Assembly (NCBI GenBank): GCA_947653375.1
Contig: CANTHA010000002.1
Location: 1-41,816 of the forward strand
Reading direction: 5' to 3'
Source of the DNA: an uncultured Clostridium sp.
GTDB lineage: Bacteria > Bacillota > Clostridia > TANB77 > CAG-508
Length of the DNA stretch: 41,816 nucleotides
In this document: positions 5,675 through 21,640 of the stretch, piece after piece
Layout: every line of letters begins with the position of its first letter
Numbering within the stretch: position 1 is the first letter of the stretch
Notes under the pieces: model-generated
Told to the model about the DNA's origin: nothing
The model's input: only the letters and a program-made list of their open reading frames with translations
Database searches by the model: none
Translations under genes and position numbers: made by a program

Positions 5675-6559
5675 CTATATAAATGATAATTGTTCTTCTT
5701 GTTTCATTTCTTTTTTATATGCTTTTACTATATCGTTCATTCTATAAAGTAATCCATATCTTTCACATTCTTCTTTAAATACTTTTCCTAAATTATTATT
5801 TAGTGGATAACAAAAATAATTATTTCCATAAGTTTTTATATACTTATCTTTTAATTTAGGAAATATCTTATCTAGTTGCTCATAAAAATATTCTCTTTGA
5901 TTTTCTCTTAATGTAACTCCTCCCATTGAGAATACAAATTTTGCTCCATTTTCATAAGATAATTTTATTACATTTCTAATATTTTCCTCCGAATCTGTTA
6001 TAAATGGAATAATTGGTGTTAGTAATGTTCCAATAAATAGTCCCTGTTTGGATAATTGTTTCATCGCTTTTAGCCTTTCAGAAGAAACACATACATTTGG
6101 CTCTATTTTTCTTGATAAATTATCATCTGCTGATGTAATTGTAAATTTAAGTATTACATCTGCTTTCCTGTTTATTTTCTTAAATATGTCTATATCTCTA
6201 ACTATCAAATTACTTTTTGTTTCTAGTGATACTCCAAAATTGTAATAGGAAATCAATTTTAATGCTTGTCTTGTTATTTCATATTGTTCTTCAAAAGGAT
6301 TGTATGTATCTGACATTGCTCCTATACCTATTACTCCTTTTTTTCTTTTTGATTTTAGTTCTTGACTTAATATTTCTATTTCATCTTTTTTGGCTCTTAC
6401 CCTATCAAAATCCTCTACTTGATAGCAATTACTTCTACTATCGCAATAAATACATTTATGACAGCAACCTTTATATAGATTCATATTATAATCAATTCCA
6501 AACCATTTTTCTCCGTGTGTTGCTCTTTGAAGTATTGTCTTTGCTTCTATAAATTCCAT
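5675..6559 (-). CDS. Radical SAM protein, SplB/DNA-photolyase-like family (COG1533-type)
   Basis: GCCHKCIYCDS cluster near the N-terminus. Size and layout are typical of SPL-family radical SAM proteins. Confidence 0.8.
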   Translation of the reverse strand: MEFIEAKTILQRATHGEKWFGIDYNMNLYKGCCHKCIYCDSRSNCYQVEDFDRVRAKKDEIEILSQELKSKRKKGVIGIGAMSDTYNPFEEQYEITRQALKLISYYNFGVSLETKSNLIVRDIDIFKKINRKADVILKFTITSADDNLSRKIEPNVCVSSERLKAMKQLSKQGLFIGTLLTPIIPFITDSEENIRNVIKLSYENGAKFVFSMGGVTLRENQREYFYEQLDKIFPKLKDKYIKTYGNNYFCYPLNNNLGKVFKEECERYGLLYRMNDIVKAYKKEMKQEEQLSFI

Positions 6560-6561
6560 AA

Positions 6562-7200
6562 CTATTTCCTTTTTCTTATTGGATGTCTTATAACTGTTTT
6601 TAATTTATTTACATCGCATCTTCTTGGATCACTTAAATAAATTTCGTGATGAAAACGAGTATCTGTAATATCTAGTTCATATCCATTTTCTATCATATAT
6701 TCGTGCATTAAACTAATAGTTTTAGGCTCATTATCATAAGAGCCTATGTGCATACATTGAATGCAGATCCCTTCATCATAAGTTAAAAATTCTACTTTTG
6801 AAAAATCTTGTTTCTTTTTCTTGGTAGCCTCATCAATAGCCCATTCAAAATCTTCTTTTGTTACAAAGTCTGGTAATCTAATAATTGAAATAAAGTTAAA
6901 TTTGTCTTTACTCTTATAATCTATACTACTTTTGTTTCCTTCTTGCCACCAGAATCCTTCAAGTGGTGGAACTACATATTCAAAATAGCCATTTATTTTA
7001 TATGTTCCTTTATAACTCATTTTTATAGTAAAAGCAATCGAATACAAAAGTCCTATTGAATCTTTATATTCACTATTTTCATCATTAGGATTTCCTTTTC
7101 CTCTAACTGCAATGTAATTCATTTTAGGAATTTCTACAATACTAGGTTTATTCTTTGGTATATAAAATTCCTTATATTCCTTTTTATAATCAAAAGCCAT
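6562..7200 (-). CDS. GyrI-like small-molecule-binding domain protein
   Basis: N-terminal DYKKEYKEFYIPKNKPSIVEIPKMNYIAVRGKGNPN pattern is typical of GyrI-like proteins. Confidence 0.75.
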   Translation of the reverse strand: MAFDYKKEYKEFYIPKNKPSIVEIPKMNYIAVRGKGNPNDENSEYKDSIGLLYSIAFTIKMSYKGTYKINGYFEYVVPPLEGFWWQEGNKSSIDYKSKDKFNFISIIRLPDFVTKEDFEWAIDEATKKKKQDFSKVEFLTYDEGICIQCMHIGSYDNEPKTISLMHEYMIENGYELDITDTRFHHEIYLSDPRRCDVNKLKTVIRHPIRKRK

Positions 7201-7219
7201 TTATCTTTATCCTTTCCCT

Positions 7220-7684
7220 TTAATCTTCTAATGCAATATAAATATGAATTTCTTGTTTTTGCATATCTTCGGAATTATTTTGATATTCTTCAAAATCACA
7301 AGTGTATTTTCTTTTTAAATCCATATTCCATATTTCTTGCCAAGCCTGCCCTACTGAATTCTGCACATCTCCTATTATTATGAATTTAGCATATTTTCCT
7401 TTTGGAATAATAATACTTTCTAATTCTTCGCCCCTTTGTACTTCCTTACTAACCTCTGCTCCTGCAATAAATGTATAAGGTTTTGTATAATCTCCCTCAT
7501 ATTTTGTATATAATCCTATTGTTTTATTATTTACCTTATTTTGTATCTTCTCATAAATCCCATCTGTAAATAATTTTTGCCAAGTTATTCCTATATCTTG
7601 CACAGCCTTTCCATCTTCATTAGTTGTATTTATTTTAATTCCTGCAACAACCTTTTCCTCTAATTCTACAATTTCATATTTCAT
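7220..7684 (-). CDS. GyrI-like / AraC-effector-binding domain protein
   Basis: MKYEIVELEEKVVAGIKINT... has the typical effector-binding-domain start and is 154 aa long. Confidence 0.75.
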   Translation of the reverse strand: MKYEIVELEEKVVAGIKINTTNEDGKAVQDIGITWQKLFTDGIYEKIQNKVNNKTIGLYTKYEGDYTKPYTFIAGAEVSKEVQRGEELESIIIPKGKYAKFIIIGDVQNSVGQAWQEIWNMDLKRKYTCDFEEYQNNSEDMQKQEIHIYIALED

Positions 7685-7725
7685 AATTTATACCTCCTAT
7701 AGATGAAGTATATAACACTTAACTT

Positions 7726-7743
7726 GACAACTGTATGTCATAT
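7726..7743. promoter_or_regulatory. Operator-like 18-mer gacaactgtatgtcatat upstream of the GyrI-like operon
   Basis: 16 of 18 positions are identical to the site at 8678-8695. Contains the inverted repeat tgaca/tgtca. Confidence 0.4.
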
Positions 7744-8657
7744 TATAAATAATTTTTTAAAGTTTTTTCTAATTTATCTTTTATAATATTTTTTGCTCTA
7801 TTTGGTGCTATAACTTTTATATGTTCTCCAAAAGATAAAATATAGCCATATACCCATTCATTCTCTGGATATTCTACTTTTACAATAAAGTTTCCATTTT
7901 CTTTTTTAGATATTTCGCTATTTTCAAATTCATCATATACTCTATAAGCCATCTCCTTACTTATTTCTAATTCAAGTAATATGTTCTTAAAATTATATTT
8001 TTCTTCTTTTTGCTCTTTTGGTAGTTCTTTTTCAAAATGTTCTTGTAATGTCTTAATTTCTTTTATTCTAGCAATTTTGAAGATTCTGTAATCTTCTTTA
8101 TTTCTACAATAACTTATTAAATACCATGATTTATCTTTAAACCATATTTGTAATGGCTCTACAATTCTTCTACTTTCTTCTCCATTAGAATTATAATAAG
8201 TAAATTTAATTAGTTTCTTGTTTAAAATTGCAGATTTAATAATCTCAAATCTATTTTCTTGTATATTATCTTTACTCCAGTTAGATAAATCTATTCTGAT
8301 CCAATCATTTATCTCTTTGTTAAATAATGTACTTAACTTCTCTAAAATATCTTTTTCATCTTGTCCTCTTACTTTTATCATCCCTTGCAAAGCAAACAAA
8401 ATTTGATTTTGTTCTTCTTCTGAAAGAATTGTTTTATTTAGTACATATTCATCTAAAAGCCCTATACCTCCATCTTTGCCCTTACTTGCATAAATTGGTA
8501 TGTTCGCACTACTCAATGCTTCTATATCTCTATATATAGTTCTAGTTGATACTTCAAATTTATCTGCTAGTTCTTTTGCTGTAACTTTTTTCTTTTGCAT
8601 TAGTATATACACTATTTCAAATAATCTATTATTTACTTGCATATTTTCCTCCTGCAA
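7743..8657 (-). CDS. YafY-family transcriptional regulator (HTH + WYL domain)
   Basis: N-terminal VTAKELADKFEVSTRTIYRDIEALSSANIPIYASKGKDGGIGL. Length and C-terminal region are consistent with a WYL domain. Confidence 0.85.
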   Translation of the reverse strand: MQEENMQVNNRLFEIVYILMQKKKVTAKELADKFEVSTRTIYRDIEALSSANIPIYASKGKDGGIGLLDEYVLNKTILSEEEQNQILFALQGMIKVRGQDEKDILEKLSTLFNKEINDWIRIDLSNWSKDNIQENRFEIIKSAILNKKLIKFTYYNSNGEESRRIVEPLQIWFKDKSWYLISYCRNKEDYRIFKIARIKEIKTLQEHFEKELPKEQKEEKYNFKNILLELEISKEMAYRVYDEFENSEISKKENGNFIVKVEYPENEWVYGYILSFGEHIKVIAPNRAKNIIKDKLEKTLKNYL

Positions 8658-8673
8658 GTATTATATCATATAA

Positions 8674-8695
8674 ATATGACATCTGTCTGTCATAT
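8674..8695. promoter_or_regulatory. Palindromic operator atatgaca-tctgtc-tgtcatat upstream of the YafY-like gene
   Basis: Perfect 8-bp inverted repeat about 20 nt upstream of the start codon. Related copy at 7726-7743. Confidence 0.45.
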
Positions 8696-8799
8696 TTTCA
8701 AAAAAGAAGATACTAATTTCTTAATATCTTCCTATAATTTTTTATTCTAATTCTTTCTTATGATTAAAGTGTATTCCAATATGACCGATTCCTAATATT

Positions 8800-9309
8800 T
8801 TAGATATTATATACAAATCCAACTTCCCAATAGTTTTGTTTTTCTATTTCAATTACTCTTTCTTTAATGATTTCTCCTCCCATCTTTTTATAAAACTCTT
8901 TAGATGGATCATTATCTTTTAAGCACCACAATATCATCTTTGTTTTATTTTTACTTTTAAATTCATCAATAACAAATTGAAATAGTTTTGTACCTATTCC
9001 ATTGTATTTTAATTCTGGCTTTACATATAAGGCTAATAGCTCACAATCTATATCTAGTATATCCTGTGTAAATTTATTGCTATCAATATATCTACAGAAT
9101 CCAACTACTTCTTTATCTGATTCTGCAACTATAAATCCATTATCTTTATAATCTTTGTTTCTTTTTTCTATTTTTTTATCCCTATTCATTGAATTTAAAA
9201 TAGAATCATCAATAATTCCCTTATATGCAGTTTTCCATCCATCTATTTGAATGTCAACAACTCTTGGAATGTCTTTTTCTTCAATACTTCTAATTATAAT
9301 ATTCTCCAT
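8800..9309 (-). CDS. GNAT family N-acetyltransferase
   Basis: YVKPELKYNGIGTKLF acetyl-CoA-binding-type motif; 169 aa. Confidence 0.85.
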   Translation of the reverse strand: MENIIIRSIEEKDIPRVVDIQIDGWKTAYKGIIDDSILNSMNRDKKIEKRNKDYKDNGFIVAESDKEVVGFCRYIDSNKFTQDILDIDCELLALYVKPELKYNGIGTKLFQFVIDEFKSKNKTKMILWCLKDNDPSKEFYKKMGGEIIKERVIEIEKQNYWEVGFVYNI

Positions 9310-9369
9310 TGTTTATCACTCTTTCAATTATTTATCAACTAATATTTTATAACAAATTCCTTTAAGTTG

Positions 9370-11040
9370 TCATATATTCTCTTTGTTATATCGCCAAATA
9401 AATCCACCTGCTGATTTTCTAGTTCCATTACAGGCACTTGAAATATGTTTTATCCCAGTTAGATTTATAGCTTCTGTAACACTATTATATGTATTAACAT
9501 ACACGCCATCTAAAGTATATTGATAAACTTTTTTTGATTTTTTATTTCCTATAACTTTTTTTGCACATTCTGGACACCCTTTGCCCTGACTTCTATTATA
9601 TGGTGTTGATTGCCATTCATATTCGCAATTTGAACATTTCCACCATACTTTTTTATTACTTTTCAATGTTATTTCATTAGGAGATATAGTATTTTTTTCA
9701 TAATTCCACTCTTTTAAAAATATAGGTTTTTTTTCAAATAGTGTTCCATTCTTTTTCAATAATACTTTTTCAAGAGTAGCAACCCTTCTTTTATGCGAAC
9801 ATTTTGGGCATTTACATCCAGCCATAATTTCATTTGGACTTCTAAAATATGCTTCTCCACATTTAGAACATTTCCACCATACTTTTTTCCCACTAGATAA
9901 ATATATCGTATCTGGAGTTATAGGATAATTTTTTTCATAATCCCATTCTTTTATTATTTCACTATTTAGACTTGATAAACTGCGTTCTTTCAAAGATTTT
10001 TGATAAGATTTATCTATTTCACTATAATCTCTTTTTACATCAATAAAGTTTTTATCATATATAATGTTTAGTTTATCTAATAATGTTTTTATTGCCTTTG
10101 TTAAATTATCACCTTTATCATATCCATATATTATCTTATTATCTTTCCAAAATACATTGTTGCTTTTTTCTTTTTTCTCAATTATTCTATATAATGTGAT
10201 TCCTCTTTTTTTGATTTCATTTTCTTTTTGTTTATCAGTAGTTTTCTTGTTTTTATGAAAGAAAAATCCATCATACTCAATACCTACTTTGAATTGTGGT
10301 AAAAATATATCAATTTCATATCTATTATCTAATTTATACCTATTATAGCATTCTATATTTAACTTTTTAATATAGTAGAAAATAGCCTGTTCTCCAAATG
10401 AAGTATTCTTTTCTGAATTACATTTTGGGCATCCTCTACCATTACTTCTACTAGATATAATTGCTTTCCAACTATTTTTACATCTTTTACATATCCAATA
10501 AGCATACTGATTAGAAAATTCACCAATTTTATGAGGATTCAACTTGTTTTTTTCATAATCCCATTCTTCTAATAATTTAGGTTGTTTTGTTGCAAAATCG
10601 TTATATCCTGTTAAAATTTTATTTCCATAACAATAAACACATCTAGGAAATTTTTTTATTGCATAGGAAGTAGCATATCGTTCGTGTCCACATTCAAACT
10701 TCCACCAATATTTTTTTGTAGCATTAAATATAACTTCTTCTGGTCTTTTGTTATTTTTATCATAGTTCCAAAATTGTAATATTTGAGAATCAGTTGTTTT
10801 TAGATCATTATATCCTTTTTTGACACATCTTCTATTACAATACGGACAGCCATTTTTTATATTATTTCTATCCTTTACAATTTTTTGATATATATGACCG
10901 TTTTGGCATTTCCACCATACTTCTTTATGGCTTCCACACGTCACTTTTTGAGGGAAAATATTTAATTTATTATTTTTTTCATAATACCATTCTTTTATTA
11001 AAAGTTCATTATCTATAACATACTTCTTATCTTTACTCAT
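9370..11040 (-). CDS. Multi-zinc-ribbon protein with central Vsr/DUF559-like nuclease core and C-terminal homing-endonuclease-type DNA-binding motif
   Basis: Five WWKC...CPxC treble-clef-like modules. The core reads EIDIFLPQFKVGIEYDGFFFH and the tail reads VTEAINLTGIKHISSACNGTRKSAGGFIWRY. Confidence 0.65.
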   Translation of the reverse strand: MSKDKKYVIDNELLIKEWYYEKNNKLNIFPQKVTCGSHKEVWWKCQNGHIYQKIVKDRNNIKNGCPYCNRRCVKKGYNDLKTTDSQILQFWNYDKNNKRPEEVIFNATKKYWWKFECGHERYATSYAIKKFPRCVYCYGNKILTGYNDFATKQPKLLEEWDYEKNKLNPHKIGEFSNQYAYWICKRCKNSWKAIISSRSNGRGCPKCNSEKNTSFGEQAIFYYIKKLNIECYNRYKLDNRYEIDIFLPQFKVGIEYDGFFFHKNKKTTDKQKENEIKKRGITLYRIIEKKEKSNNVFWKDNKIIYGYDKGDNLTKAIKTLLDKLNIIYDKNFIDVKRDYSEIDKSYQKSLKERSLSSLNSEIIKEWDYEKNYPITPDTIYLSSGKKVWWKCSKCGEAYFRSPNEIMAGCKCPKCSHKRRVATLEKVLLKKNGTLFEKKPIFLKEWNYEKNTISPNEITLKSNKKVWWKCSNCEYEWQSTPYNRSQGKGCPECAKKVIGNKKSKKVYQYTLDGVYVNTYNSVTEAINLTGIKHISSACNGTRKSAGGFIWRYNKENI

Positions 11041-11113
11041 TATTTCACCTATACAAATGTTATTTCTTTTCTGATTACTATAATAGCATAAAATTCTTAA
11101 TTATTCCACAAAT

Positions 11114-11148
11114 TTGACATTTTTCTTATTTTCGACAAATTTCAACAC
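11114..11148. promoter_or_regulatory. Three 0A-box-like heptamers upstream of the Spo0E-like ORF
   Basis: TTTGACA (11114), TTCGACA (11132; exact reverse complement of TGTCGAA) and TTCAACA (11142), each preceded by AATTT. Confidence 0.4.
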
Positions 11149-11197
11149 ACTATTTTATGTAAATATGATAAGATATATATGAAGGGAGTTGATATTT

Positions 11198-11362
11198 ATG
11201 GATTCTAAAACAATCTATTTAATTATGAAAAATACTGCTAAATTAGAAAAACTAATTGAAACCAATGCTCCTTATGAAAAGATCATCAAACAAAGTCAGA
11301 AATTAGACAAGTATATTATGATACAAATGAAACATATTAACAAAATAGGAGTTAGTTCTTAA
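11198..11362 (+). CDS. Spo0E-family aspartyl-phosphate phosphatase-like protein (54 aa)
   Basis: Not in the ORF track because it is under 60 aa. GAAGGGAG RBS. MDSKTIYLIMKNTAKLEKLIETNAPYEKIIKQSQKLDKYIMIQMKHINKIGVSS carries the SQxLDxxI signature. Confidence 0.6.
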   Translation: MDSKTIYLIMKNTAKLEKLIETNAPYEKIIKQSQKLDKYIMIQMKHINKIGVSS

Positions 11363-11376
11363 ACTATCTCCTATTT
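11343..11376. terminator. Bidirectional hairpin between convergent genes
   Basis: aaataggag/ctcctattt, a perfect 9-bp stem spanning both stop codons. Confidence 0.5.
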
Positions 11377-11635
11377 ATTCTTTTACTGCAATCAATAATT
11401 CGTTAGGTTGTACTGTCATATTTGCATTTCTATAAGTATATTTTGCTCCTGTAAAATATACATCATATCCATTGTTTTCAAAATAGTCTTTATTTATTTT
11501 TAAAAACTTATCTATCTCTAGTTCTGATAAATTGTTCTTAACTCTTAGCTCATAAAAAGTATATCTTATAAAATTCTTATCTTCGCTTTCATTTAATTTA
11601 TCATTTATATAGTTAATTACAAAAGCATCTGTCAT
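11375..11635 (-). CDS. Hypothetical small protein (86 aa)
   Basis: I prefer the start at ATG 11635 (GGAAGTGAG RBS, MTDAFVINY...) because a good promoter and tandem 0A boxes lie inside the longer track ORF (to 11731). Confidence 0.55.
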   Translation of the reverse strand: MTDAFVINYINDKLNESEDKNFIRYTFYELRVKNNLSELEIDKFLKINKDYFENNGYDVYFTGAKYTYRNANMTVQPNELLIAVKE

Positions 11636-11660
11636 TTTCTCACTTCCAATCTCAAATAGA

Positions 11661-11689
11661 ATTATATCATATTCTTGTTTTTCTGTATA
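11661..11689 (-). promoter_or_regulatory. Sigma-A-type promoter for the 86-aa gene
   Basis: On the minus strand: TATACA, 17-nt spacer, TGATATAAT (extended -10). Confidence 0.45.
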
Positions 11690-11711
11690 GATTTTTGATT
11701 GCATTTTGTTA

Positions 11712-11728
11712 TTCGACAACATTCGACA
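11712..11728. promoter_or_regulatory. Tandem consensus Spo0A boxes, 10-bp phased
   Basis: TTCGACA at 11712 and 11722 (TGTCGAAtgtTGTCGAA on the minus strand), between the divergent promoters. Confidence 0.5.
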
Positions 11729-11749
11729 CAATTCCTTATAAAAAGGGCT

Positions 11750-11769
11750 AAAAAGGGTACAAAAAAAGA
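11750..11769. repeat. Exact copy of the 20-mer aaaaagggtacaaaaaaaga (also at 3721-3740)
   Basis: Exact 20/20 match. It is preceded 10 bp upstream by the half-site aaaaagggct. Confidence 0.6.
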
Positions 11770-11780
11770 AGTTTACAGTA

Positions 11781-11809
11781 TTGAATTGACATAATTTTTG
11801 TGATATAAT
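11781..11809 (+). promoter_or_regulatory. Sigma-A-type promoter of the Spo0A-like gene
   Basis: TTGAAT, 17-nt spacer, TGATATAAT (extended -10). GAGG RBS lies 7 nt before the ATG at 11848. Confidence 0.5.
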
Positions 11810-11847
11810 GTGGAAAAAAATAGGAGAAACATTTGTGAGGCAAAATT

Positions 11848-12579
11848 ATGGTTAATGTACTTATCGGCAACAAGAATACTAGAGAAACTGATATTCTTTG
11901 CCACGAACTTGCAAATGATAAAAATTATAGGGTTGATAATGTTGTTACTGGAAAAGATGCAGTAACTATGTATTGGGATATGAATCCAGATATTTTAGTT
12001 TTAGATAATAACTTATCTGATATGTCTATTGAAGATATAGTAAATAGATTATCTTGTAATCCTTTAGAACAAAAACGATGTAATACTATTCTAACACTAT
12101 CGCCACACTATAGAATGAAATTGAATAATGTTGCAAAAATCAATGAGATTATATATAAACCTATTTTAAATAATGAGTTAGTTGAAACTATAAAAACAAT
12201 GTCTATTGATTATAATACTCCAGATTTAGAAGTTGGTGAAATTGATTGGCTGTTACAATCTCTAAACTTTAATTGTATGTCTGCTGGATATAAATATATG
12301 CGAGATGCTATTACCTACTGCTATTATAGACCAGATGAATTAGAATTTTTAACTACAGTATTGAAATATATTGCTTATAAATATGATGTTCCAGAATCAC
12401 GAGTTAGAGATTCATTAAAGAGTTGTATTAGACCATTTAATAATACCAATATATATAGTTGCCCAGATGATCTGTATAAGGTATTATACAATAGTGGTAA
12501 TAAATTATCCCTTAAAGATTTTATAGAAAGAATCGTTTTTTATTTGATTAGAGTTAAGAAAAAAGGTAGAATATTCTAG
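11848..12579 (+). CDS. Spo0A-family regulator paralogue (receiver + Spo0A_C DNA-binding domain) with degenerate acidic pocket
   Basis: NPDILVLDNNLSDMSIEDIVNRL and IIYKP align with the Spo0A receiver. GYKYMRDAITYCYY...VPESRVRDSLKSCI aligns with the Spo0A C-domain. The DD pair is replaced by N-K (VLIGNKN). Confidence 0.75.
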   Translation: MVNVLIGNKNTRETDILCHELANDKNYRVDNVVTGKDAVTMYWDMNPDILVLDNNLSDMSIEDIVNRLSCNPLEQKRCNTILTLSPHYRMKLNNVAKINEIIYKPILNNELVETIKTMSIDYNTPDLEVGEIDWLLQSLNFNCMSAGYKYMRDAITYCYYRPDELEFLTTVLKYIAYKYDVPESRVRDSLKSCIRPFNNTNIYSCPDDLYKVLYNSGNKLSLKDFIERIVFYLIRVKKKGRIF

Positions 12580-12602
12580 TTATTAGAAGTATCCTACCTT
12601 TT
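12561..12602. terminator. Bidirectional hairpin between convergent genes
   Basis: aaaaggtag/ctacctttt, a 9-bp stem with a partly self-paired loop and T-runs on both strands. Confidence 0.55.
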
Positions 12603-12606
12603 CTTT

Positions 12607-13812
12607 TTAAAACTGTGCATTTATGTATTCTTTATAAGAATCTATAATTCCTACATATCTTATTTGTGTTTGTTCTCTAATTACTGTATTCATCTTATCT
12701 CCAATAATCTTTTTAGCTTCCAAATATTCCTCTTTTGGAATGTCTAAAGCTATAAAATTAAATGCTGGTACATTTTCATTTAATGCTTTTTTAGATTGTT
12801 TAATTATATCAAGTCCATTCATATTAGTTCCAAAATCATATTTAGAAAACACCATTTCTGGCTTAAATTCAATAATTTTATTGTAAGTATCTTCTGGATT
12901 TTTTGTTGTAGCAACAATTTCAATATCCTCAATTCCTTTTAATATATTAACAATTTCATCCTTTGTTTTATCATCATCGTAAGCGATTAACGCCCTAATC
13001 TTTTTCATAATACTATCTCCATTCATATTTATATACTCATCAATATACTTGACTACATTATCATTTATTGCATTTCCAAGTAAGAAGTCTATACCATTTT
13101 CTGTTTTTATTATATCCCCATTTGCTAAAATCAAAATATTTTTCTCTAAATCTTCCTGTTTCTTAAAGGTTACACTACTTATATTTTCATACTTTTCATA
13201 TATTTTTCTTAATACACTATCAAATTCAAAGTTTGTAATTTCAAATATTTCTCTATTTTTTTCAGCCGATTCTCGTAATGGCATAAATTGATATAATTTC
13301 CAAATACCAATTTTATAATTATTTAAGAAATCACCTAATTCTTCAATTTCTTCAAGATTTTGTTTATTTACTACTGTATTTATATTCACTTTCAATTTCT
13401 TATAGTTTTCCAACTTTATATAGTTAAGTATATTGTGAATATTGGTAAAGTGTTTCTCTCCTCTACCTAATATATCATTAGTTTTACTTTTTATAGAATC
13501 TAATGATATTGTCAGATCATCTAAATAATTCAGTATTTCATAGTTTTGCTCTAACAATTTTCCATTTGTTATGATTCTATTATAGATTCCGTTCTCTTTT
13601 GATATTTTGATTAACTTATACAACTCTGGATATAATAGTGCCTCTCCACCAGTCCAGGTAATATGTGTTATTCCATCTCTTATTAGATTATATAGTATCT
13701 TTTCATTCTCTTTATAATCTAGTTCTCTTATGTTTATGAAACGATGACAATATTTGCAATTTTGATTGCATCTTGAAACAATATTCCAGCATACTTTCTT
13801 TTTAATTTTCAT
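12607..13812 (-). CDS. Radical SAM enzyme (viperin-like core) fused to a C-terminal CheY-like receiver domain
   Basis: Core motifs are CNQNCKYC, TGGEALL, ITNGKLL, LTISLDSIKSKTNDILGRG and IWKLYQFMPL. The C-terminal ~125 aa begin IRALIAYDDD and continue PEMVFSKYDFGTNMNGLDI. Confidence 0.75.
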   Translation of the reverse strand: MKIKKKVCWNIVSRCNQNCKYCHRFINIRELDYKENEKILYNLIRDGITHITWTGGEALLYPELYKLIKISKENGIYNRIITNGKLLEQNYEILNYLDDLTISLDSIKSKTNDILGRGEKHFTNIHNILNYIKLENYKKLKVNINTVVNKQNLEEIEELGDFLNNYKIGIWKLYQFMPLRESAEKNREIFEITNFEFDSVLRKIYEKYENISSVTFKKQEDLEKNILILANGDIIKTENGIDFLLGNAINDNVVKYIDEYINMNGDSIMKKIRALIAYDDDKTKDEIVNILKGIEDIEIVATTKNPEDTYNKIIEFKPEMVFSKYDFGTNMNGLDIIKQSKKALNENVPAFNFIALDIPKEEYLEAKKIIGDKMNTVIREQTQIRYVGIIDSYKEYINAQF

Positions 13813-13843
13813 AATTCATCCCTCTTTCATAAATTGTATCTGT

Positions 13844-13898
13844 ATTATATATTCATCAAAAATGAATGTAAATCAACATTTTCGAGGGTTATCCGACA
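13844..13898 (-). promoter_or_regulatory. Promoter of the radical SAM-REC gene with an upstream 0A-box-like site
   Basis: On the minus strand: TTTACA, 17-nt spacer, TATAAT. TGTCGGA (6/7 of TGTCGAA) lies about 20 nt upstream of the -35. Confidence 0.45.
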
Positions 13899-13910
13899 TT
13901 TTTTGTAGGT

Positions 13911-13939
13911 AAAAAAAAGAATATCCTTTTTGGATATTC
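13911..13939 (-). terminator. Rho-independent terminator after the LysR gene
   Basis: gaatatcc ttttt ggatattc, a perfect 8-bp stem followed by T8 on the minus strand. Confidence 0.7.
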
Positions 13940-13968
13940 GATATATATACTTATAAAATTTTATAGAT

Positions 13969-14871
13969 TTATTGTTTTTTTAAATAATTTTTAATAAATT
14001 GTTTATCTACTTTTGTCAACTGATTTTTTAAATATACTATTTTTATACTGCTCTTTGGTAACTTTATAGGAACTTTAACTTCATATAATTCATTATTTTC
14101 TATATATTTACAAGCAGTTTCTCTCATTACATAAGCGATTCCTATTCCATCTAATGCTGCATTTACTCTATCTTCTGTAGTAGGACATCTTAATATTGCA
14201 TTAAGAGAAATGTTGTGATCTTTCAATTTTTCGTTTAATTCTACAGTCGAAATTCTATCTTCATAATTCAAAATATATTTATAATTATTAAAATCTACTA
14301 TATCTTTTATTTCTATTTTTTTATTAGCTATAAAAACATTTTCAATAGTTTCTATTTCTTCTATCTCTAAATCTTCTTTATATTCTGGAGGAATAACATC
14401 TAAAATAATAAAGTCTATCTTATTACTTTTTAATGATTCTATTAGTTCTTTACTATTAGATTCTGTGTCTAAATTTATTTGAATATTTGGATAATCTTTT
14501 ACAAGATCAACAAGTTTTTTTCTTAAAAAGAATTTTGTTATATGCGAAGGGCATCCTACAGATATTTTTCCATTTTCTAAGCTATTTTTGCTTTCTATTA
14601 TTGTTGGTATAAAATCAAATAATCCGATTGATTTTTTAGCTTGAATGTATGTTTCTTTTCCAAACTCTGTTAGTTTTAGACCTTTGTTAGAGCCTTTATT
14701 TTTTCTATAAAATAGTTGTACTCCTAATTGATCTTCAAGCGAATTGATATTTGCACTAACAATCCTATCACTTATATTTAATTTTTCAGCAGCTTCAGCA
14801 AAACTGTCCGATTCTGCTACAGTTAAGAAAGTTCTATATAGATTTAGGTTTATATTATTTACATTAACCAT
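13969..14871 (-). CDS. LysR family transcriptional regulator
   Basis: N-terminal LNLYRTFLTVAESDSFAEAAEKLNISDRIVSANINSLEDQLGVQLF HTH; 300 aa. Confidence 0.9.
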   Translation of the reverse strand: MVNVNNINLNLYRTFLTVAESDSFAEAAEKLNISDRIVSANINSLEDQLGVQLFYRKNKGSNKGLKLTEFGKETYIQAKKSIGLFDFIPTIIESKNSLENGKISVGCPSHITKFFLRKKLVDLVKDYPNIQINLDTESNSKELIESLKSNKIDFIILDVIPPEYKEDLEIEEIETIENVFIANKKIEIKDIVDFNNYKYILNYEDRISTVELNEKLKDHNISLNAILRCPTTEDRVNAALDGIGIAYVMRETACKYIENNELYEVKVPIKLPKSSIKIVYLKNQLTKVDKQFIKNYLKKQ

Positions 14872-14877
14872 TATTCT

Positions 14878-15507
14878 CTATCTCCCCAATATCTTCTTTA
14901 ATTCCCTTTCAGCTTTTTTTACAAAAAAATCGCTTTCATCTATTGGTATTTCTAACTCTCTTATCATTTGTTTTAATTTATCTACTGTATCAAGTTGTTC
15001 ATTATTTTCTACTGTTTCAACTTCGATTAAGTTATCTCCGTTTTCTATATCTTTAATTGCAATTTCAAGTCCATTTTTGCCATATACTAAACTACTTTCT
15101 CTAATACTCATTATTTCTTTATATTCAATGGCTTTTATAAAACTTTTGCCCTGTTCTAAATTCTTTATTTCACAGTCAACCTTTTCTTGACCAATAATAT
15201 CTCCATTGGGTGCGATATCTTTATTTTTATATGTCATTTTAATAATATCATAACTACTTGTAAAATCACTTGGCTCATATTGTTTTATCTTTCTTATCAA
15301 GATATAGTGATTTAATACTTCTCTAGGAGATAATTTCGTTATATCTAAATCTTTTGAAATATAATATGTATCATCTAAAAAATATTTATCAACTATCTTA
15401 AATCCTTTGTTTTCTAGTATATTATACATTTCCTCTATACTACATTTTAGTTTGACTGTTATTTCATTACTCACCAAATATCTCTCCTTAAAAATATTAC
15501 TTTTCAA
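14878..15507 (-). CDS. CYTH domain protein (class IV adenylate cyclase / triphosphatase-like)
   Basis: NEITVKLK at the N-terminus, then IRKIKQ, MTYKNK, VDCEI and LIEVE beta-strand acidic/basic patterns. The second Glu of EXEXK is replaced by Thr. Confidence 0.6.
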   Translation of the reverse strand: MKSNIFKERYLVSNEITVKLKCSIEEMYNILENKGFKIVDKYFLDDTYYISKDLDITKLSPREVLNHYILIRKIKQYEPSDFTSSYDIIKMTYKNKDIAPNGDIIGQEKVDCEIKNLEQGKSFIKAIEYKEIMSIRESSLVYGKNGLEIAIKDIENGDNLIEVETVENNEQLDTVDKLKQMIRELEIPIDESDFFVKKAERELKKILGR

Positions 15508-15599
15508 TTATAACACATTATGTCAATTTTGTAAAGTCAAAAAAGTTCTAAAAAAAGCCACCATTTCAACAATAGCAGCTATTTTTCTTATATAAAATT

Positions 15600-15812
15600 T
15601 TATATACTGTCAATACATCTAAACACATTACTATATTGGTCTTGTAATTTGCTTATATCTCCGTTTTTAGAACTATGGCTCATTATATAATCTACAATTT
15701 GCATTTTACATCTTTTTAATTCTTCTTGATTATAATCCTTATCTTCAATAATTACTCCTGCTTTTTCTATTAGTTCTACATCTTTTTTAGTACATTCATT
15801 TAATATGTTCAT
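15600..15812 (-). CDS. Hypothetical protein (70 aa)
   Basis: ORF co-directional with its neighbours. No recognisable motif. Confidence 0.45.
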   Translation of the reverse strand: MNILNECTKKDVELIEKAGVIIEDKDYNQEELKRCKMQIVDYIMSHSSKNGDISKLQDQYSNVFRCIDSI

Positions 15813-15849
15813 TACTGCTACTTCCCTTCTTTGCTTTATATTACTCTCG

Positions 15850-16389
15850 TTAATTTATTCTCTTATGTTCTAAATAATATTCTAAAATTTTTCTATCTCT
15901 TAATACAACAAATCTAGTATCATATACATCATCATAGTCTGATGGTAATAATTTATCATAGCAATCTGTTACTAATTTTAATGCCTCTTTAGGCTCTACC
16001 CATAATAACTTTGCACCTTCACTTTTCTCTTTTTCAGTTAAATTTAATTTGTGCTTATCGTTTATAACTTTTGCAATAAAAATATTAGATATTTGTTTCA
16101 AATTTTGCAAACTCTTATATTCTTCTGTAGTTCCTAATTTCTCAATAATCTCTATTTCGCAACCTGCTTCTTCTAATACTTCTCTTTTGAAAGCAATGGT
16201 CGGATCTTCATTTTCTTCCATTCCTCCTCCGACAAGTTTATATTCATTTTTATTGCTTTTATTTTGTATTGCTATTTTTCCATCATCTCTAACAACAATT
16301 CCTCTAGCAGCTACTCGTAATCTATAATCTTTCATTTCTTGTGGCTCTATTCCAAAATCTTTATCTGTTATTTTAAATAATATATCCAT
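15850..16389 (-). CDS. NUDIX hydrolase
   Basis: Nudix box GGGMEENEDPTIAFKREVLEEAGCEI. Confidence 0.85.
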   Translation of the reverse strand: MDILFKITDKDFGIEPQEMKDYRLRVAARGIVVRDDGKIAIQNKSNKNEYKLVGGGMEENEDPTIAFKREVLEEAGCEIEIIEKLGTTEEYKSLQNLKQISNIFIAKVINDKHKLNLTEKEKSEGAKLLWVEPKEALKLVTDCYDKLLPSDYDDVYDTRFVVLRDRKILEYYLEHKRIN

Positions 16390-16414
16390 TTCTTCTCTTA
16401 CCTCTTTCTATAAA

Positions 16415-16759
16415 TTATTTTTCCATTTCCCAACTCTTGAAATATATACATTCATTGTTATCATTGAATTTTATCTCATATATACCATCAAATTCGGTAA
16501 TATCTCTTTGAAATATCCAATTTACAATTACTGTATTATCTTCTATTGCTAAAATTTTAAATTCTAACTTTTTTATATCTTGATTATCAATATTCTCCCA
16601 TTCTTTTGCAATTTCTTCATATTTAGTATAAGGTGTTAAAAATGGTGTTTCTTGATAAAAGTTTGTATTAGTAAATAATGATGCTGCTTTATTAGAATCT
16701 TTATTTAGCCAAGATTCTTTTAGAATATTTAACCAATTTTCTATATATTTTCTATCCAT
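16415..16759 (-). CDS. NTF2/SnoaL-like fold protein, paralogue of 22424-22789
   Basis: Size and pattern fit (WLNILKESWLNKD...VIVNWIFQ). Clear similarity to the 121-aa paralogue. Confidence 0.5.
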   Translation of the reverse strand: MDRKYIENWLNILKESWLNKDSNKAASLFTNTNFYQETPFLTPYTKYEEIAKEWENIDNQDIKKLEFKILAIEDNTVIVNWIFQRDITEFDGIYEIKFNDNNECIYFKSWEMEK

Positions 16760-16773
16760 AATATTTTCTCCTA

Positions 16774-17613
16774 TTATTTAATAACTCCTCCAGAACAATG
16801 AAGCTCATATATTAAATTATTATCTTTATATACTTGCTCAATTCCATCAAAATTTTCTATTGTTCCATTTGCTTTAAAAGTATAGACATATCCATTATTT
16901 TCAAACTTAATTGGTCCTCTAGCTGGAATTATATTTTTATCTTCACCAACTTTCATTAGTGCTGGTCTTAATGCGTTATCCATTGCTTCCTCGCCTAATG
17001 TATCATCATAAGTTATACCATAATAATTCATTCCCCATATTGGCTTGTTATCATCACAATATACAACTTCTTCACCCATAAATTTAATCCCACCAAAATA
17101 TGTATCGTGGTATGTATATTTTTTATTATCAATTATTTCCTCATAATTATAGTCTGATGATCCGACTCTACTTGCTATAACTTTTTCTATTGTACCATTG
17201 GCATAAGTGGATTTCTTCGCTCTAATTAAAAAATCAATAAATGTATTATCTATAATATTTCCTGCATAGTAAGTTTCTGCATAAAAGCTATTATCTCTTA
17301 ACATTTTGTCGATAGATTCAAATTCACATTCTGCAAATTCACAACATAATCTCAATATTTCTTTTTCATTATCTTTATTTAGTACATATTTCTTTATTTC
17401 GCCATTTCTAAATTTAAAGATAAATACCTTATCTTTACCTAGATATTCATTCCAAAATCCATTTTCAAGCGTTTCACATATATATTTTTCAAACAATTCA
17501 ATCTTGTTATCATCAAATATAACTCCATAATTATTCCCAAATGATTTTATTCTAAAATTATCTTGTTTAAGTGCATCAATATTGTTGATTCCCATTACAT
17601 AACTGTAGTTCAT
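16774..17613 (-). CDS. Protein with C-terminal DUF5680-like domain
   Basis: TYANGTIEKVIASRVGSSDYNYEE...YHDTYFGGIKFMGEEVVY...WGMNYYG pattern. Confidence 0.55.
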   Translation of the reverse strand: MNYSYVMGINNIDALKQDNFRIKSFGNNYGVIFDDNKIELFEKYICETLENGFWNEYLGKDKVFIFKFRNGEIKKYVLNKDNEKEILRLCCEFAECEFESIDKMLRDNSFYAETYYAGNIIDNTFIDFLIRAKKSTYANGTIEKVIASRVGSSDYNYEEIIDNKKYTYHDTYFGGIKFMGEEVVYCDDNKPIWGMNYYGITYDDTLGEEAMDNALRPALMKVGEDKNIIPARGPIKFENNGYVYTFKANGTIENFDGIEQVYKDNNLIYELHCSGGVIK

Positions 17614-17616
17614 ATC

Positions 17617-17994
17617 CTATTCCTCCAATTTAAAAAATGTATCTTTATTTCTATCAATAAGATTATGTGCCATCTCCATTTCTTCTGGCTTATTTATATA
17701 AATAATTTTAAACTTTCCAGATGTGGTTTTATTTATATAATCGTGATTTACTTCTAATATATGTACTTGTCCCCAATATAGCCATTTTCCATCAATATTC
17801 TCTACTAAAAAATTTCTAACTGGTGGCATTTGATAATTTCTAATACTAGGCTTATCTTTAAATTCAAATATTCTATCAGCAAATTGTTCTGTAGTATATG
17901 GAATTTTCAAATGTTTTTTCCAATCTAATTCTTTTGGAAATCCCTGTTCCTTTGTTATTTGTAATGTATCATTAATTTCAATATATGATCCCAT
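17617..17994 (-). CDS. Hypothetical protein (125 aa)
   Basis: ORF lies 3 nt upstream of the next gene. No recognisable motif. Confidence 0.55.
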   Translation of the reverse strand: MGSYIEINDTLQITKEQGFPKELDWKKHLKIPYTTEQFADRIFEFKDKPSIRNYQMPPVRNFLVENIDGKWLYWGQVHILEVNHDYINKTTSGKFKIIYINKPEEMEMAHNLIDRNKDTFFKLEE

Positions 17995-18019
17995 ATTTAT
18001 TTCCTCCTATTTCATTAAA

Positions 18020-18592
18020 TTATTTATCTATAAATAAAACCTTTAGTATATTCTTATACCTATCTTTTATTATTTCTCTTGTTTTATCACTTAATTTATT
18101 GTAATCTCGTTCCAATTTTTTCTTTAAATAATTTTCTCCATCTTTTACTGATGAATTCATTTCATTGTAAACTAGGTGGAATAACGAAGGGATGCAGTCA
18201 AAATGTGCAATAACATCTGCATCTGCTACACATTGTTCTTCTATTGTATTTCTTGGTAATTCTTTACTACCTCTATGTCTTAATACACATTCTTTAACTC
18301 TTTCTTTTCTATCTTCTGGATAGTTCAATTTTGTTAGTAATTCATCTGCAATTTTCACTCCATAAACATTGTGTTCTTCTCTAGGTCCAAATTCTGATGG
18401 CATTGCTATATCGTGTAATAATGCTCCTAACTCTACAATTTCAATATCTGCATTATATTCTTTTGCTAATTCTACTGCATTTTTTACAACATATTTAATA
18501 TGGTCATTCCAAAAATCATAGTTATACTTTTCATTATATATATTGCATCTTTTTATCAATTCTTCTTTAATATTCTCTACTATTTCATTCAT
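18020..18592 (-). CDS. HD domain phosphohydrolase
   Basis: GALLHDIA HD motif plus downstream His/Asp residues (RHRG, DADVIAH). Confidence 0.8.
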   Translation of the reverse strand: MNEIVENIKEELIKRCNIYNEKYNYDFWNDHIKYVVKNAVELAKEYNADIEIVELGALLHDIAMPSEFGPREEHNVYGVKIADELLTKLNYPEDRKERVKECVLRHRGSKELPRNTIEEQCVADADVIAHFDCIPSLFHLVYNEMNSSVKDGENYLKKKLERDYNKLSDKTREIIKDRYKNILKVLFIDK

Positions 18593-18607
18593 TGTTCGTA
18601 CTCCTTT

Positions 18608-19519
18608 TTAATTTAAGAAATTACTAACGATAATACTTTGTTCTTTTCCATTTATTTTTACTTCTGCTCCAATAGGAATAATGCTATTTCCGTGTTTATG
18701 TCCAAAATCATTAGTTTTTACTATTGGAACATCTGAATTTATCTTTCTTAATTCATCTACAATACTATATTTATTTTTTTCTACATCTTGAAGTTGATAT
18801 ATATAACCAAAAACAACAGCTCTATTAAACACATTCATTTGATTATATTGTTCTAGCATTGTATTCCATTGAATAATATCACTATGGAATCCTTCTAAAA
18901 ATAATACTGCATTTTTTAAATCTGGCATATATGGTGTTCCTAATAATTTCAATAAGCATCTTACATTAGTTCCATATATCTTACCATTGATTTCTTCATT
19001 TTTAAAATCAATAAATTGTCTTTCTTCATAAGGAATAATTGTTTTATTAGCATTAAATAATTTATCAATAATTTCATTTTTATCATATTCTGTAACTTCA
19101 TCTTTTCCAAACCAAACATAATCTTGACAATGAAAAGTTACAAGTCCAGTCATTTTATTTATAGCACAAAGTAAAACTGTAATATCACTCATACCTAGAA
19201 ATATTTTAGGATTGTTTTTTATATTTTCAAAATCTATATATGGAAGTATTCCATTTACCATATCTCCACCTTTTACAGTAAATATTGCTTTAACTTCTTT
19301 ATCGCTAAACATATCATTTAAGTCTTTTGCTCTTTCTTTAGGTGTTCCAGCACAGTAATTATCTTCTGAAAATAAATATTTACCATATTTTACTTTTAAT
19401 CCTAAACTTTCAAAATATTTAGTTGCATTTTCTAAAGGTTTTATATCTTTATTTTTTAATGCTTTATCTGGAGCAATAACTCCTATTGTATCTCCTACTT
19501 GTAATTTATTCGCTAACAT
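18608..19519 (-). CDS. S66 family LD-carboxypeptidase (MccF/LdcA-like)
   Basis: GDTIGVIAP and GMSDITVLL (nucleophile Ser), with a C-terminal GHKHGN His. Confidence 0.8.
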   Translation of the reverse strand: MLANKLQVGDTIGVIAPDKALKNKDIKPLENATKYFESLGLKVKYGKYLFSEDNYCAGTPKERAKDLNDMFSDKEVKAIFTVKGGDMVNGILPYIDFENIKNNPKIFLGMSDITVLLCAINKMTGLVTFHCQDYVWFGKDEVTEYDKNEIIDKLFNANKTIIPYEERQFIDFKNEEINGKIYGTNVRCLLKLLGTPYMPDLKNAVLFLEGFHSDIIQWNTMLEQYNQMNVFNRAVVFGYIYQLQDVEKNKYSIVDELRKINSDVPIVKTNDFGHKHGNSIIPIGAEVKINGKEQSIIVSNFLN

Positions 19520-19534
19520 TGTAATCTCCCTCTT

Positions 19535-20227
19535 TTAATTTCTTTCTATTATTAAATCTGCAACTGTTAAATTGCAATCACTTGTAACATTATCTATAAT
19601 TGTTTTTGCTACATCTTCTGCTTTCATAAAAGAATTAGATTTTTCTACAGATACATAATCTCTACTATTTTTATAAAATTCTGTATTTATTCCTCCTGGA
19701 TATACTCCAATTACTTTTACACTTGTACCTTTATATGCAACTTTTAAACTTTCTGTATATCCTCTTTCTCCCCATTTTGTAGCACAATAAACTGATTCTT
19801 GCTTATTACCTCTTAATGCTGCAGATGACATTATATTTACTATTTTCAAATTCTTTTCTTCTTTAATTTTTAATGTTTCTGTAGAGCATATTATCATTCC
19901 TTTTAAGCCTTTAAAACATTTTTCAATATCTGCATTTTCATAATTAGTTGGTAACTTAAATGATGGCTCTCCTGCATTATTAACTAAAATACTAATATTT
20001 CCAAGTTTTGAGATTTCGTTTATTGTATTTCTTATAAATTCTTCATCTGATATATCTCCAATAAAGCCTTTATAGTTGTCTGTATATATATTATTTAATT
20101 CATTCATTTTTGTAACATCTCTGTCTATATTACAAACAAATAATCCTTTTTCTATTGATTTTTTAACTAATGCTAATCCTAAACCATTAGCTCCACCAGT
20201 TATAATAATTATATCTTTCATACTCAA
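19535..20227 (-). CDS. SDR family oxidoreductase
   Basis: ITGGANGLGLA glycine motif and YCATK active-site motif. Confidence 0.85.
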   Translation of the reverse strand: MSMKDIIIITGGANGLGLALVKKSIEKGLFVCNIDRDVTKMNELNNIYTDNYKGFIGDISDEEFIRNTINEISKLGNISILVNNAGEPSFKLPTNYENADIEKCFKGLKGMIICSTETLKIKEEKNLKIVNIMSSAALRGNKQESVYCATKWGERGYTESLKVAYKGTSVKVIGVYPGGINTEFYKNSRDYVSVEKSNSFMKAEDVAKTIIDNVTSDCNLTVADLIIERN

Positions 20228-21620: not shown

Positions 21621-21640
21621 CTTTTCACACTTTCTTATTT

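Follow-up and report, generated by a model that had tools for sequence, protein, structure and literature searches.

A viperin-like radical SAM enzyme with a pseudo-receiver tail in a conserved four-gene module of uncultured gut Clostridia

On a 41,816-nucleotide stretch of DNA from an uncultured Clostridium sp. (contig CANTHA010000002.1; the whole stretch is here called the window), a viperin-like radical S-adenosylmethionine (SAM) enzyme is joined to a degenerate receiver domain in a single protein of 401 aa, referred to as rSAM-REC*. The gene stands at the centre of a four-gene module, the other members of which encode a probably CYTH-like protein (p209), a LysR-family regulator and a convergently transcribed Spo0A-like protein of 243 aa (Table 1). 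The enzyme belongs to a viperin-like, CYTH-associated sister clade, and the module is regarded as an undescribed candidate for a nucleotide-based defence or signalling module. Tentatively, and at a likelihood somewhat short of even, the module is interpreted as a mobile device which would work through a nucleotide, the CYTH-like protein and docking of the tail on the Spo0A-like protein, and which would serve in conflict. An earlier note, made from the letters of the window, had read the gene as a viperin-like enzyme fused to a CheY-like receiver that is controlled by phosphorylation.

Architecture of rSAM-REC*

The open reading frame (ORF) begins with ATG, is encoded on the minus strand and contains all of the sequence blocks that the earlier note had quoted from it (CNQNCKYC, TGGEALL, ITNGKLL, LTISLDSIKSKTNDILGRG, IWKLYQFMPL, IRALIAYDDD and PEMVFSKYDF). 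Since more than 100 protein clusters and about 70 genomic loci encode full-length homologs (41-100% identity), it is a genuine gene and not a chance ORF; at E<=0.001 the homologs number ~1,000. The structure model calculated with AlphaFold2 (AF2) consists of a core (residues 1-262), a disordered linker (residues 261-269) and a (beta-alpha)5 domain (residues 272-400), so that the proposed division into an enzyme and a C-terminal domain was right. Identity among 52 distinct fused proteins amounts to 63% for the core and 47% for the tail. An early impression that the tail is better conserved than the core was dropped in view of these values; it had arisen from the exchange of the tail together with its partner gene, which is described below.

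For the core, the only Pfam match was Radical_SAM (residues 10-163, 1e-19). The best-scoring NCBIfam model was NF038283 (viperin_w_prok) with 116.7 bits, next to 79 bits for MoaA, and a non-viperin radical SAM family as best match, the outcome that would have spoken against the viperin assignment, was thus not observed. The score lies below the curated cutoff of 180 bits, and TIGR04278 gave 48 bits against a cutoff of 450 bits. The viperin model was also the best-scoring one for ten close relatives (109-166 bits, all under its cutoff). The PADLOC model for prokaryotic viperins (pVips; PDLC02903) matched the core at 2e-38 over profile positions 2-248 of 257 (96%), as a hidden Markov model (HMM) match to which the PADLOC system rules were not applied. 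The top PDB sequence matches were all viperins, as were the top 11 Foldseek matches of the AF2 model (mouse and fungal, E ~1e-12, TM score ~0.70 on the target), which ranked above SkfB, SuiB, PqqE and MoaA. In the HMMER alignment with mouse viperin (sequence of 5VSL), TISLDSIKSKTNDILGRG is paired with AISCDSFDEQVNALIGRG and IWKLYQF with RWKVFQC, and the parallels to viperin that the earlier note had drawn therefore hold. Viperins form a partial (beta-alpha)6 barrel that is closed by a C-terminal extension; here the core stops at about residue 262, and the last ~30 viperin residues have no counterpart.

The three cysteines of the CxxxCxxC motif (C15, C19 and C22) and the SAM-binding GGE motif (G55-G56-E57) are invariant in all 52 homologs, and apparently the radical SAM enzyme is intact and active. 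Three further residues, an extra Cys8, N145 and K172, are likewise invariant in the 52 distinct homologs, the latter two being the equivalents of viperin N222 and K247. For the substrate pocket, the contacts to the nucleoside triphosphate (NTP) were taken to be N77, H79, K120, S124, K220, N222, R245, K247, Y302, K319 and R347 of mouse viperin. This list reportedly goes back to Fenwick et al. 2020, and its numbering alone was checked against the PDB sequence. Equivalents were found for S124 (aligned with T54), R194, N222 (N145) and K247 (K172), whereas N77 is replaced by C8, H79 by N10, K120 by H50, K220 by N143 and Y302 by I226; R245 corresponds to I170 in rSAM-REC* and to Lys in most homologs, and the segment bearing R347 has no equivalent in the core. 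The viperin assignment thus stood as far as the top profile, PDB and Foldseek matches are concerned, but not with regard to the curated cutoff and the replaced pocket residues. The core is viperin-like in its predicted fold, represents a clade distinct from the curated viperin family and is probably viperin-like in chemistry.

Compared with viperins and pVips, rSAM-REC* has in common the CxxxCxxC and GGE motifs, the blocks ...SxDS...N..LGRG and.WK..Q, and the recurrent linkage of its clade to RNase toxins and nucleotide-metabolism genes. It differs in the invariant Cys8 and the remodelled pocket, in the replacement of the R347-bearing C-terminal segment by a linker and a receiver-fold domain, in its CYTH-like, LysR and Spo0A-like partners, which are not those described for pVips, and in having tail-less sister enzymes that are encoded in operons of biosynthetic appearance.

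The isolated tail gave no match to PF00072 even at E<=10, and the Pfam gathering threshold was not reached. In the PDB, a profile of the tail matched nothing but receiver domains, at marginal E-values (3B2N, CheB, VraR and Spo0A), and it retrieved stand-alone proteins of 128-134 aa with 41-77% identity from the protein database. The tail was aligned with 24 relatives, mostly stand-alone ones; PF00072 matched 19 of these 25 members (best 1.3e-17), and hhalign of this family against CheY, Spo0F, PhoB, Spo0A and NarL returned a probability of 98.6% and an E-value of 1.2e-15. When AF2 was run with 22 close homologs the predicted local distance difference test (pLDDT) of the tail was below 50; for the final model the stand-alone relatives were added, and beta1 (residues 272-277) through alpha5 (residues 383-400) were modelled at pLDDT 87-94. 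As Foldseek of the full model was dominated by the radical SAM core, the tail was judged by hhalign and the per-member Pfam scans. A receiver fold of the C-terminal region, as anticipated in the earlier note, was hereby confirmed.

The position of the phospho-acceptor, CheY D57, is occupied by Lys324 at the end of beta3, and in the 52 homologs by K (40), E (7), R (3), Q (1) or G (1). Because Asp never occurs there, the tail is considered a pseudo-receiver, in which gating by phosphorylation is very unlikely. The Asp that had been proposed as acceptor within PEMVFSKYDF, Asp326, aligns with CheY N59 and is not conserved (N in 29, D in 11, E in 8 and A in 4 homologs). The acid cluster in IRALIAYDDD fared better in part: D279-D281 are present in rSAM-REC*, but the acidic pair after beta1, D279/D280, is rich in Asn in most homologs (N35 D15 S2 and D28 N19 S4 K1, respectively). 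That clear T/S and K positions are missing was noted correctly, since the T87 position is Ile354 in rSAM-REC* and I, F or L in the family, and the K109 position is R here and variable in the family. No histidine kinase or kinase domain was found among the window ORFs scanned (some small ORFs were left unscanned). With atypical response regulators and other pseudo-receivers the tail shares the (beta-alpha)5 fold, the degenerate catalytic residues and the lack of a cognate kinase among these ORFs, and like them it probably acts by protein-protein contacts. It differs in being appended C-terminally to a radical SAM enzyme instead of a DNA-binding or clock protein, in the Lys at the acceptor site and in its pairing with another degenerate receiver, that of a Spo0A-type transcription factor.

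The four-gene module and its relatives

In a locus scan with one genome per species, 80 loci were collected, about 65 of which carry the full-length fusion. All loci with the full-length fusion are from metagenome-assembled genomes (MAGs) of uncultured Clostridia from the gut of human, mouse, rabbit and chicken; two copies each were found in four of the MAGs. Order and orientation of the module are fixed in these ~65 loci (41-94% identity), with p209, LysR and rSAM-REC* in one direction and the 243-aa gene convergent to them.

The convergent gene encodes a divergent paralog of Spo0A, 243 aa in length, with a degenerate receiver and a Spo0A_C domain (PF08769, 28.2 bits, above the cutoff of 25 bits). 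Its profile matched the DNA-binding structures 1FC3 (1.8e-7) and 1LQ1 (2.2e-7) as well as the receivers of Spo0A and CheY at 1e-5 to 1e-6 (Spo0A receiver 4e-6). It shares the architecture of Spo0A, a receiver followed by Spo0A_C, but reaches only 33.9 bits against the 200-bit cutoff of the Spo0A equivalog model TIGR02875, has no acidic pair in its beta1 loop (LIGNKN), is encoded on the mobile element convergently to the radical SAM gene, and is not the Spo0A of the host. By inspection of the alignment it seems to keep D53, T83 and K104-P105. The two degenerate receivers look complementary in that the tail is acidic after beta1 but has Lys as acceptor, and the partner apparently has Asp53, Thr83 and Lys104-Pro105 but Gly-Asn-Lys-Asn where the acidic pair would be expected.

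Of 72 tail-bearing loci, 69 have the partner gene (66 of the 69 fused and all three split ones); the 12 tail-less loci with sufficient flanking sequence all lack it. In L001 and L003-5 the tail is 75-78% and the partner 67-74% identical to those of the window, at ~50% identity of the core and 44% of LysR; as tail and partner are both far closer to the window than core and LysR, they were exchanged as one block. A signal of tail-partner co-evolution in a mirror-tree comparison was not retained, because the Pearson coefficient of 0.95 was accompanied by a Spearman coefficient of 0.07 and was driven by five loci; it is reported here as the block swap. The LysR-family gene was found in 69 of 81 loci.

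Several weak lines of evidence concern p209, the true start of which is probably located ~12 codons downstream of the listed TTG. Four of the five PDB matches of its profile are CYTH or class IV cyclase structures (1YEM, 2DC4, 3N0Y and 2FJT; E 0.004-0.18), a homolog with 54% identity carries the JGI name 'adenylate cyclase class IV', and a Pfam CYTH gene fills the p209 slot in the related loci L086 and L069. Taken together, p209 is probably CYTH-like. Of 58 loci whose upstream flank is long enough, 21 encode a 384-aa protein that has the p209-like domain as its C-terminal half (hhalign against p209, 97.4%) and AbiQ/ToxN as its N-terminal half (Pfam 1e-42, PADLOC 4e-45). The gene is preceded by a 36-nt tandem repeat with 2.8 copies, similar to ToxI. 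These 21 loci thus resemble the type III systems ToxIN and AbiQ in having a first gene with a full AbiQ/ToxN domain behind 36-nt repeats in ToxI geometry, and they differ from them by the fusion of the toxin to the p209 domain and its position within the radical SAM module; the copy in the window is toxin-free. In addition, a PemK-like toxin was found inside the module in three loci.

As the earlier note had claimed, the rSAM-REC* gene has a promoter of its own (TTTACA-17-TATAAT, 13872..13844) and is insulated by terminators on both sides. Upstream, a T8 hairpin (z -4.7) ends the p209-LysR transcript, and the hairpin between the convergent stop codons was calculated to fold at -19.8 kcal/mol (z -4.9) on the minus strand and -14.7 kcal/mol (z -3.0) on the plus strand. 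The region upstream of the radical SAM gene has the same order in all loci, namely a terminator, an operator-like dyad over the -35 region and an extended -10 region. In the upstream regions of ~37 loci the dyads are of two sequence types, 'TTAA..TTAAGAATAG' or 'GAAAAAATCGAAT-N8-GATTTTTTCAA', and they probably serve LysR and/or the Spo0A-like protein as operator sites; LysR probably gates the rSAM-REC* promoter. In the window, sequences resembling the 0A boxes of Spo0A lie just upstream of the -35 region (Table 1), which may serve as a lead only. A conserved 0A-box operator was considered and dropped, given that TCGAA cores occur in a subset of loci and the dyads are of two types. Control by a signal, as postulated in the earlier note, is plausible via the Spo0A-like partner and LysR instead of phosphotransfer. 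No RNA family was detected in the window by an Rfam scan.

Besides the fused form, further architectures were observed among the relatives, including direct fusions rSAM::LysR and rSAM::PfkB. A split form of the module (L082:127-4945, L083 and L062) encodes LysR, a PemK/MazF-like toxin (217 aa), the radical SAM enzyme (257 aa), PfkB (282 aa) and the pseudo-receiver (134 aa) as separate proteins; these genes face a convergent Spo0A-like partner, and a large serine recombinase and RhuM adjoin them. In a rough neighbour-joining tree the split form (L082/83) nests within the fused clade. A variant common in the mouse gut (L084:2352-6234 and L085) has no radical SAM gene and comprises a Spo0A-like protein (238 aa), a short LysR (232 aa) and a 75-aa ORF; its receiver-like protein (P0158, 168 collection blocks) has a Cys-rich N-terminal extension of ~75 aa and is faced by a convergent gene of 195 aa. 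L086:91-4229 and L087 show a third architecture that ties the radical SAM clade to a transcription factor and nucleotide-phosphate enzymes: a CYTH gene (182 aa) runs into the start of the gene for an rSAM::LysR fusion (564 aa), after which come NUDIX and acetate kinase genes. The tail-less relatives nearest to the core (~50% identical) are located in L066:2397-9126 and L069:3162-10147, in operons with genes for a U32 peptidase, a DAHP/KDO8P-synthase-like enzyme, two methyltransferases, a second rSAM/SPASM-like protein and a CYTH-domain protein; by its gene content this operon looks like a small-molecule biosynthetic cluster.

Mobile-element context of the window

The window has a G+C content of ~25%, and nearly all of its genes are encoded on the minus strand. 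The gene content of the whole window (1..41816) points to an integrative element, conjugative or mobilisable, with a tyrosine integrase, a MobA/VirD2 relaxase, two DNA methylases and an RHH/VapB-like antitoxin gene (Table 1). No near match to the window was present in PLSDB or INPHARED, and megablast yielded no match either, when the region was compared with plasmids and its right half with phages. A relative was found in one of 2.9 million viral contigs, which is neutral with regard to defence.

Metabolic cargo of the window includes genes for an LD-carboxypeptidase, a 2-hydroxyacid dehydrogenase and an Fe-ADH. A second, unrelated radical SAM gene (294 aa, 5675..6559) adjoins GyrI-like/Cass2 effector-binding genes (6562..7200 and 7220..7684), and a WYL/HTH/WCX regulator (7743..8657; PADLOC WYL 1.6e-65) is encoded nearby. 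In the protein of 556 aa encoded at 9370..11040, five treble-clef zinc-finger repeats (DUF4379) are combined with a nuclease region similar to REase_MTES_1575/DUF559 and with NUMOD1 at the C-terminus; judged by these domains the protein looks like a homing endonuclease or a defence nuclease, and it had no PADLOC match. Genes for a NUDIX hydrolase (179 aa, 15850..16389) and an HD-domain protein (190 aa, 18020..18592) are located upstream of the module, at a distance of a few genes. Both suit a theme of nucleotide metabolism and are not conserved elsewhere; Nudix recurs only in L064.

Table 1. Features of the module and the window (positions are those of the window unless a locus is named)
Feature	Position	Strand	Basis
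Tyrosine integrase	349..1620		
RHH/VapB-like antitoxin gene	5172..5531		
Divergent Spo0A paralog, 243 aa, degenerate receiver and Spo0A_C	11848..12579	+ (convergent)	Pfam, PDB profile matches
Bidirectional terminator hairpin between the convergent rSAM-REC* and Spo0A-like stops	~12559..12604	both	folding energy
rSAM-REC* gene	12607..13812	-	ORF, homolog family, AF2 model (mean pLDDT 84.8)
Pseudo-receiver, residues 272-400, (beta-alpha)5	12613..12999	-	AF2, hhalign, PF00072 in relatives
Lys324 codon, phospho-acceptor (CheY D57) position, end of beta3	12841..12843	-	HMMER, MAFFT, hhalign, AF2
Radical SAM core, residues 1-262, viperin-like partial barrel and short C-terminal hairpin extension	13027..13812	-	Pfam, NF038283, PADLOC, Foldseek
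CxxxCxxC [4Fe-4S] motif, C15, C19, C22	13747..13770	-	invariant in 52/52 homologs
rSAM-REC* promoter-like site, TTTACA-17-TATAAT, 11/12 sigma-70-like	13844..13872	-	sequence
Operator-like TGTCGGA ... CCTCGAA, resembles Spo0A 0A boxes	13881..13898	-	just upstream of -35; lead only
Intrinsic terminator, 8-bp stem and T8, ends p209-LysR transcript	13911..13939	-	hairpin 13939..13919, z -4.7
LysR-family regulator, directly upstream	13969..14871	-	Pfam HTH_1 and LysR_substrate
p209, probable CYTH-like (triphosphate-tunnel/class IV cyclase-like)	14878..15507	-	weak profile matches, homolog name, synteny
C5 methylase	29781..31262		
MobA/VirD2 relaxase	31309..32940		
N6/N4 methylase	40378..41412		
AbiQ/ToxN::p209-like, directly upstream of LysR and rSAM-REC*	L009:3632-4865 and 20 loci (e.g. 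L010-L027, L029, L036)		

Proposed mechanism, alternatives and meaning

The rSAM-REC* gene forms a separately gated transcription unit, as is seen from its promoter and terminators. According to the interpretation preferred here, the adjacent LysR and/or the Spo0A-like protein would probably control it at the conserved dyad over the -35 region. The enzyme would apply SAM radical chemistry to a nucleotide-like substrate, most likely converting an NTP to a modified nucleotide; such a substrate is suggested by the homology to viperin together with the recurrent linkage to CYTH, NUDIX and PfkB genes. The CYTH-like protein may bind or process the triphosphate product, and where the AbiQ/ToxN RNase is joined to the CYTH-like domain, as in a third of the loci, a ligand-controlled effector might result. 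By docking on the degenerate receiver of its Spo0A-like partner, the tail would couple the enzyme to transcription without phosphorylation, which is proposed because of their near-perfect co-occurrence and their inheritance as a block. A role in inter-genome conflict, either in anti-phage defence or abortive infection or in maintenance of the element, appears most likely; defence or addiction is favoured by the location on mobile elements, by the toxin fusions and by the published finding that pVips lie next to HicA/RelE RNases (PMC10865869).

A number of observations weigh against this interpretation. The score of the core for NF038283 is below the curated cutoff, the basic NTP-binding residues are partly kept and about half of the listed viperin contacts are replaced. 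The CYTH assignment of p209 is weak: its best PDB E-value is 0.004, it has no Pfam match to CYTH (PF01928), its signature is ExTxK (E15-I-T17-V-K19) and not ExExK, and hhalign against one Pfam-positive CYTH sequence gave an E-value of 0.03 and a probability of 1.6%. Owing to this last comparison with a single sequence the assignment is graded as probable only. Moreover, the module of the window itself has p209 alone and no toxin domain, and the co-inheritance of tail and partner could reflect mere physical adjacency. Since the nearest tail-less relatives lie in biosynthesis-like operons, an antiviral role is not transferable from the homology to viperin. Finally, substrate, product, partner binding and phenotype are all inferred.

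With these points in mind, four other explanations were weighed. That rSAM-REC* is an ordinary biosynthetic enzyme acting on a nucleoside, a nucleotide sugar or a cofactor precursor, with LysR and the Spo0A-like protein as pathway regulators, the tail as a regulator-docking or oligomerisation domain and no role in conflict, is improbable without being far-fetched. It would account for the tail-less relatives of ~50% identity in their operons with U32 peptidase, DAHP/KDO8P-synthase-like, methyltransferase, second radical SAM and CYTH genes, for the rSAM::LysR fusion beside NUDIX, acetate kinase and oxidoreductase genes, for the PfkB kinase fusions and for the pocket that is remodelled relative to viperin. 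However, the receiver-fused clade conserves the CYTH-like gene and the two regulators and no further biosynthetic genes, the module is cargo of mobile elements with a patchy and sometimes duplicated occurrence, and the CYTH-like::AbiQ fusion with ToxI-like repeats in 21 loci and the PemK-like toxin in three loci do not fit a pathway enzyme. Unlikely, too, is a regulatory device of the mobile element, in which the enzyme and the CYTH-like protein make or destroy a nucleotide-derived signal for LysR, and the pseudo-receiver sequesters or activates a mimic of Spo0A, by which genes of the host (e.g. for sporulation or stationary phase) or of the element (for excision or transfer) are reprogrammed. 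The conservation of two transcription factors in the four-gene module, the rSAM::LysR fusions, the genuine Spo0A_C domain of the partner, the L084/85 variant that keeps the pseudo-receiver, the Spo0A-like protein and LysR without the radical SAM enzyme, the 0A-box-like sequences upstream of the -35 region and the integrative conjugative element context are in agreement with such a device. Yet conservation of the 0A-like boxes does not extend across loci, the variants with AbiQ or PemK suggest an effector rather than pure regulation, and many of the hosts are reduced-genome gut MAGs that need not be spore formers.

The two remaining explanations concern the tail. A true prokaryotic viperin, i.e. 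a ddhNTP synthase, that is switched by phosphorylation of Asp326 in a canonical CheY-like receiver is scarcely credible and largely refuted by the alignments. The top matches to viperin and pVip models, the receiver fold of the tail and the presence of D279-D281 are what it would predict, but the acceptor position holds Lys324, Asp326 gives way to N, E or A in 41 of the 52 homologs, I, F or L stands in place of T87, most homologs have an acidic pair rich in N, no histidine kinase was seen among the window ORFs scanned, and the core scores 116.7 against 180 bits. Flavodoxin and CheY are both (beta-alpha)5 proteins and radical SAM enzymes require a reductant, and for these general reasons a tail that is a flavodoxin-like or other redox or cofactor domain feeding electrons to the [4Fe-4S] cluster was also taken into account. 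Hardly any likelihood is left for it, as the profile and HMM matches are specifically to receiver domains, the sequence after beta1 is AYDDD and not an FMN-binding loop, and the strict co-occurrence with a receiver-containing partner would stay unexplained. Within the preferred interpretation of a conflict module, a more far-reaching version is conceivable as immune signalling, in which the modified NTP, made by the enzyme on a trigger, would be a second messenger and not a chain terminator, read by the CYTH-like domain (which would switch on the fused AbiQ) and by the ligand-binding domain of LysR, and in which the two complementary degenerate receivers would form a phosphorylation-independent heterodimer that relays the state of the enzyme to DNA. 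This version is speculative and distinctly unlikely.

Viperins are among the few immune enzymes common to bacteria and humans, and the known prokaryotic viperins are described as stand-alone or kinase-linked effectors. The statement of the earlier note that it knew of no described prokaryotic viperin gated by a receiver domain agrees with literature searches in PubMed Central (PMC) and bioRxiv, in which no description of a prokaryotic viperin-type enzyme linked to a receiver, LysR, a Spo0A-like protein or CYTH was found. The viperin fusions listed by Shomar et al. 2023 (bioRxiv 10.1101/2023.09.13.557418) are eukaryotic only and include COG1437/PF00211 cyclase/triphosphatase domains. As in these fusions, a viperin-type enzyme is here genetically coupled to a CYTH/class IV cyclase-type domain, with the difference that the coupling is by gene fusion in eukaryotes and by a bacterial operon with two conserved transcription factors in the present case. 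The composition of the radical SAM system Ophion of Pseudomonas (PHP and PRTase) is unrelated to that of the rSAM-REC* module.

For annotation, caution is advisable in that HMMs of the PADLOC type may call members of this clade pVip, while the curated cutoff and the substrate pocket mark it as a distinct clade. The importance of the module lies in a viperin-like enzyme that appears to be wired into a dedicated circuit of a pseudo-receiver, a Spo0A-type partner, LysR and a CYTH-like domain in abundant uncultured gut Clostridia. If the interpretation is true, transcription factors and toxin domains would control the nucleotide chemistry of radical SAM enzymes or serve as its readout, and a natural case of receiver domains that pair in order to signal without phosphorylation would be at hand. 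Candidate systems for defence or addiction in the gut microbiome of humans and animals would then be more numerous.

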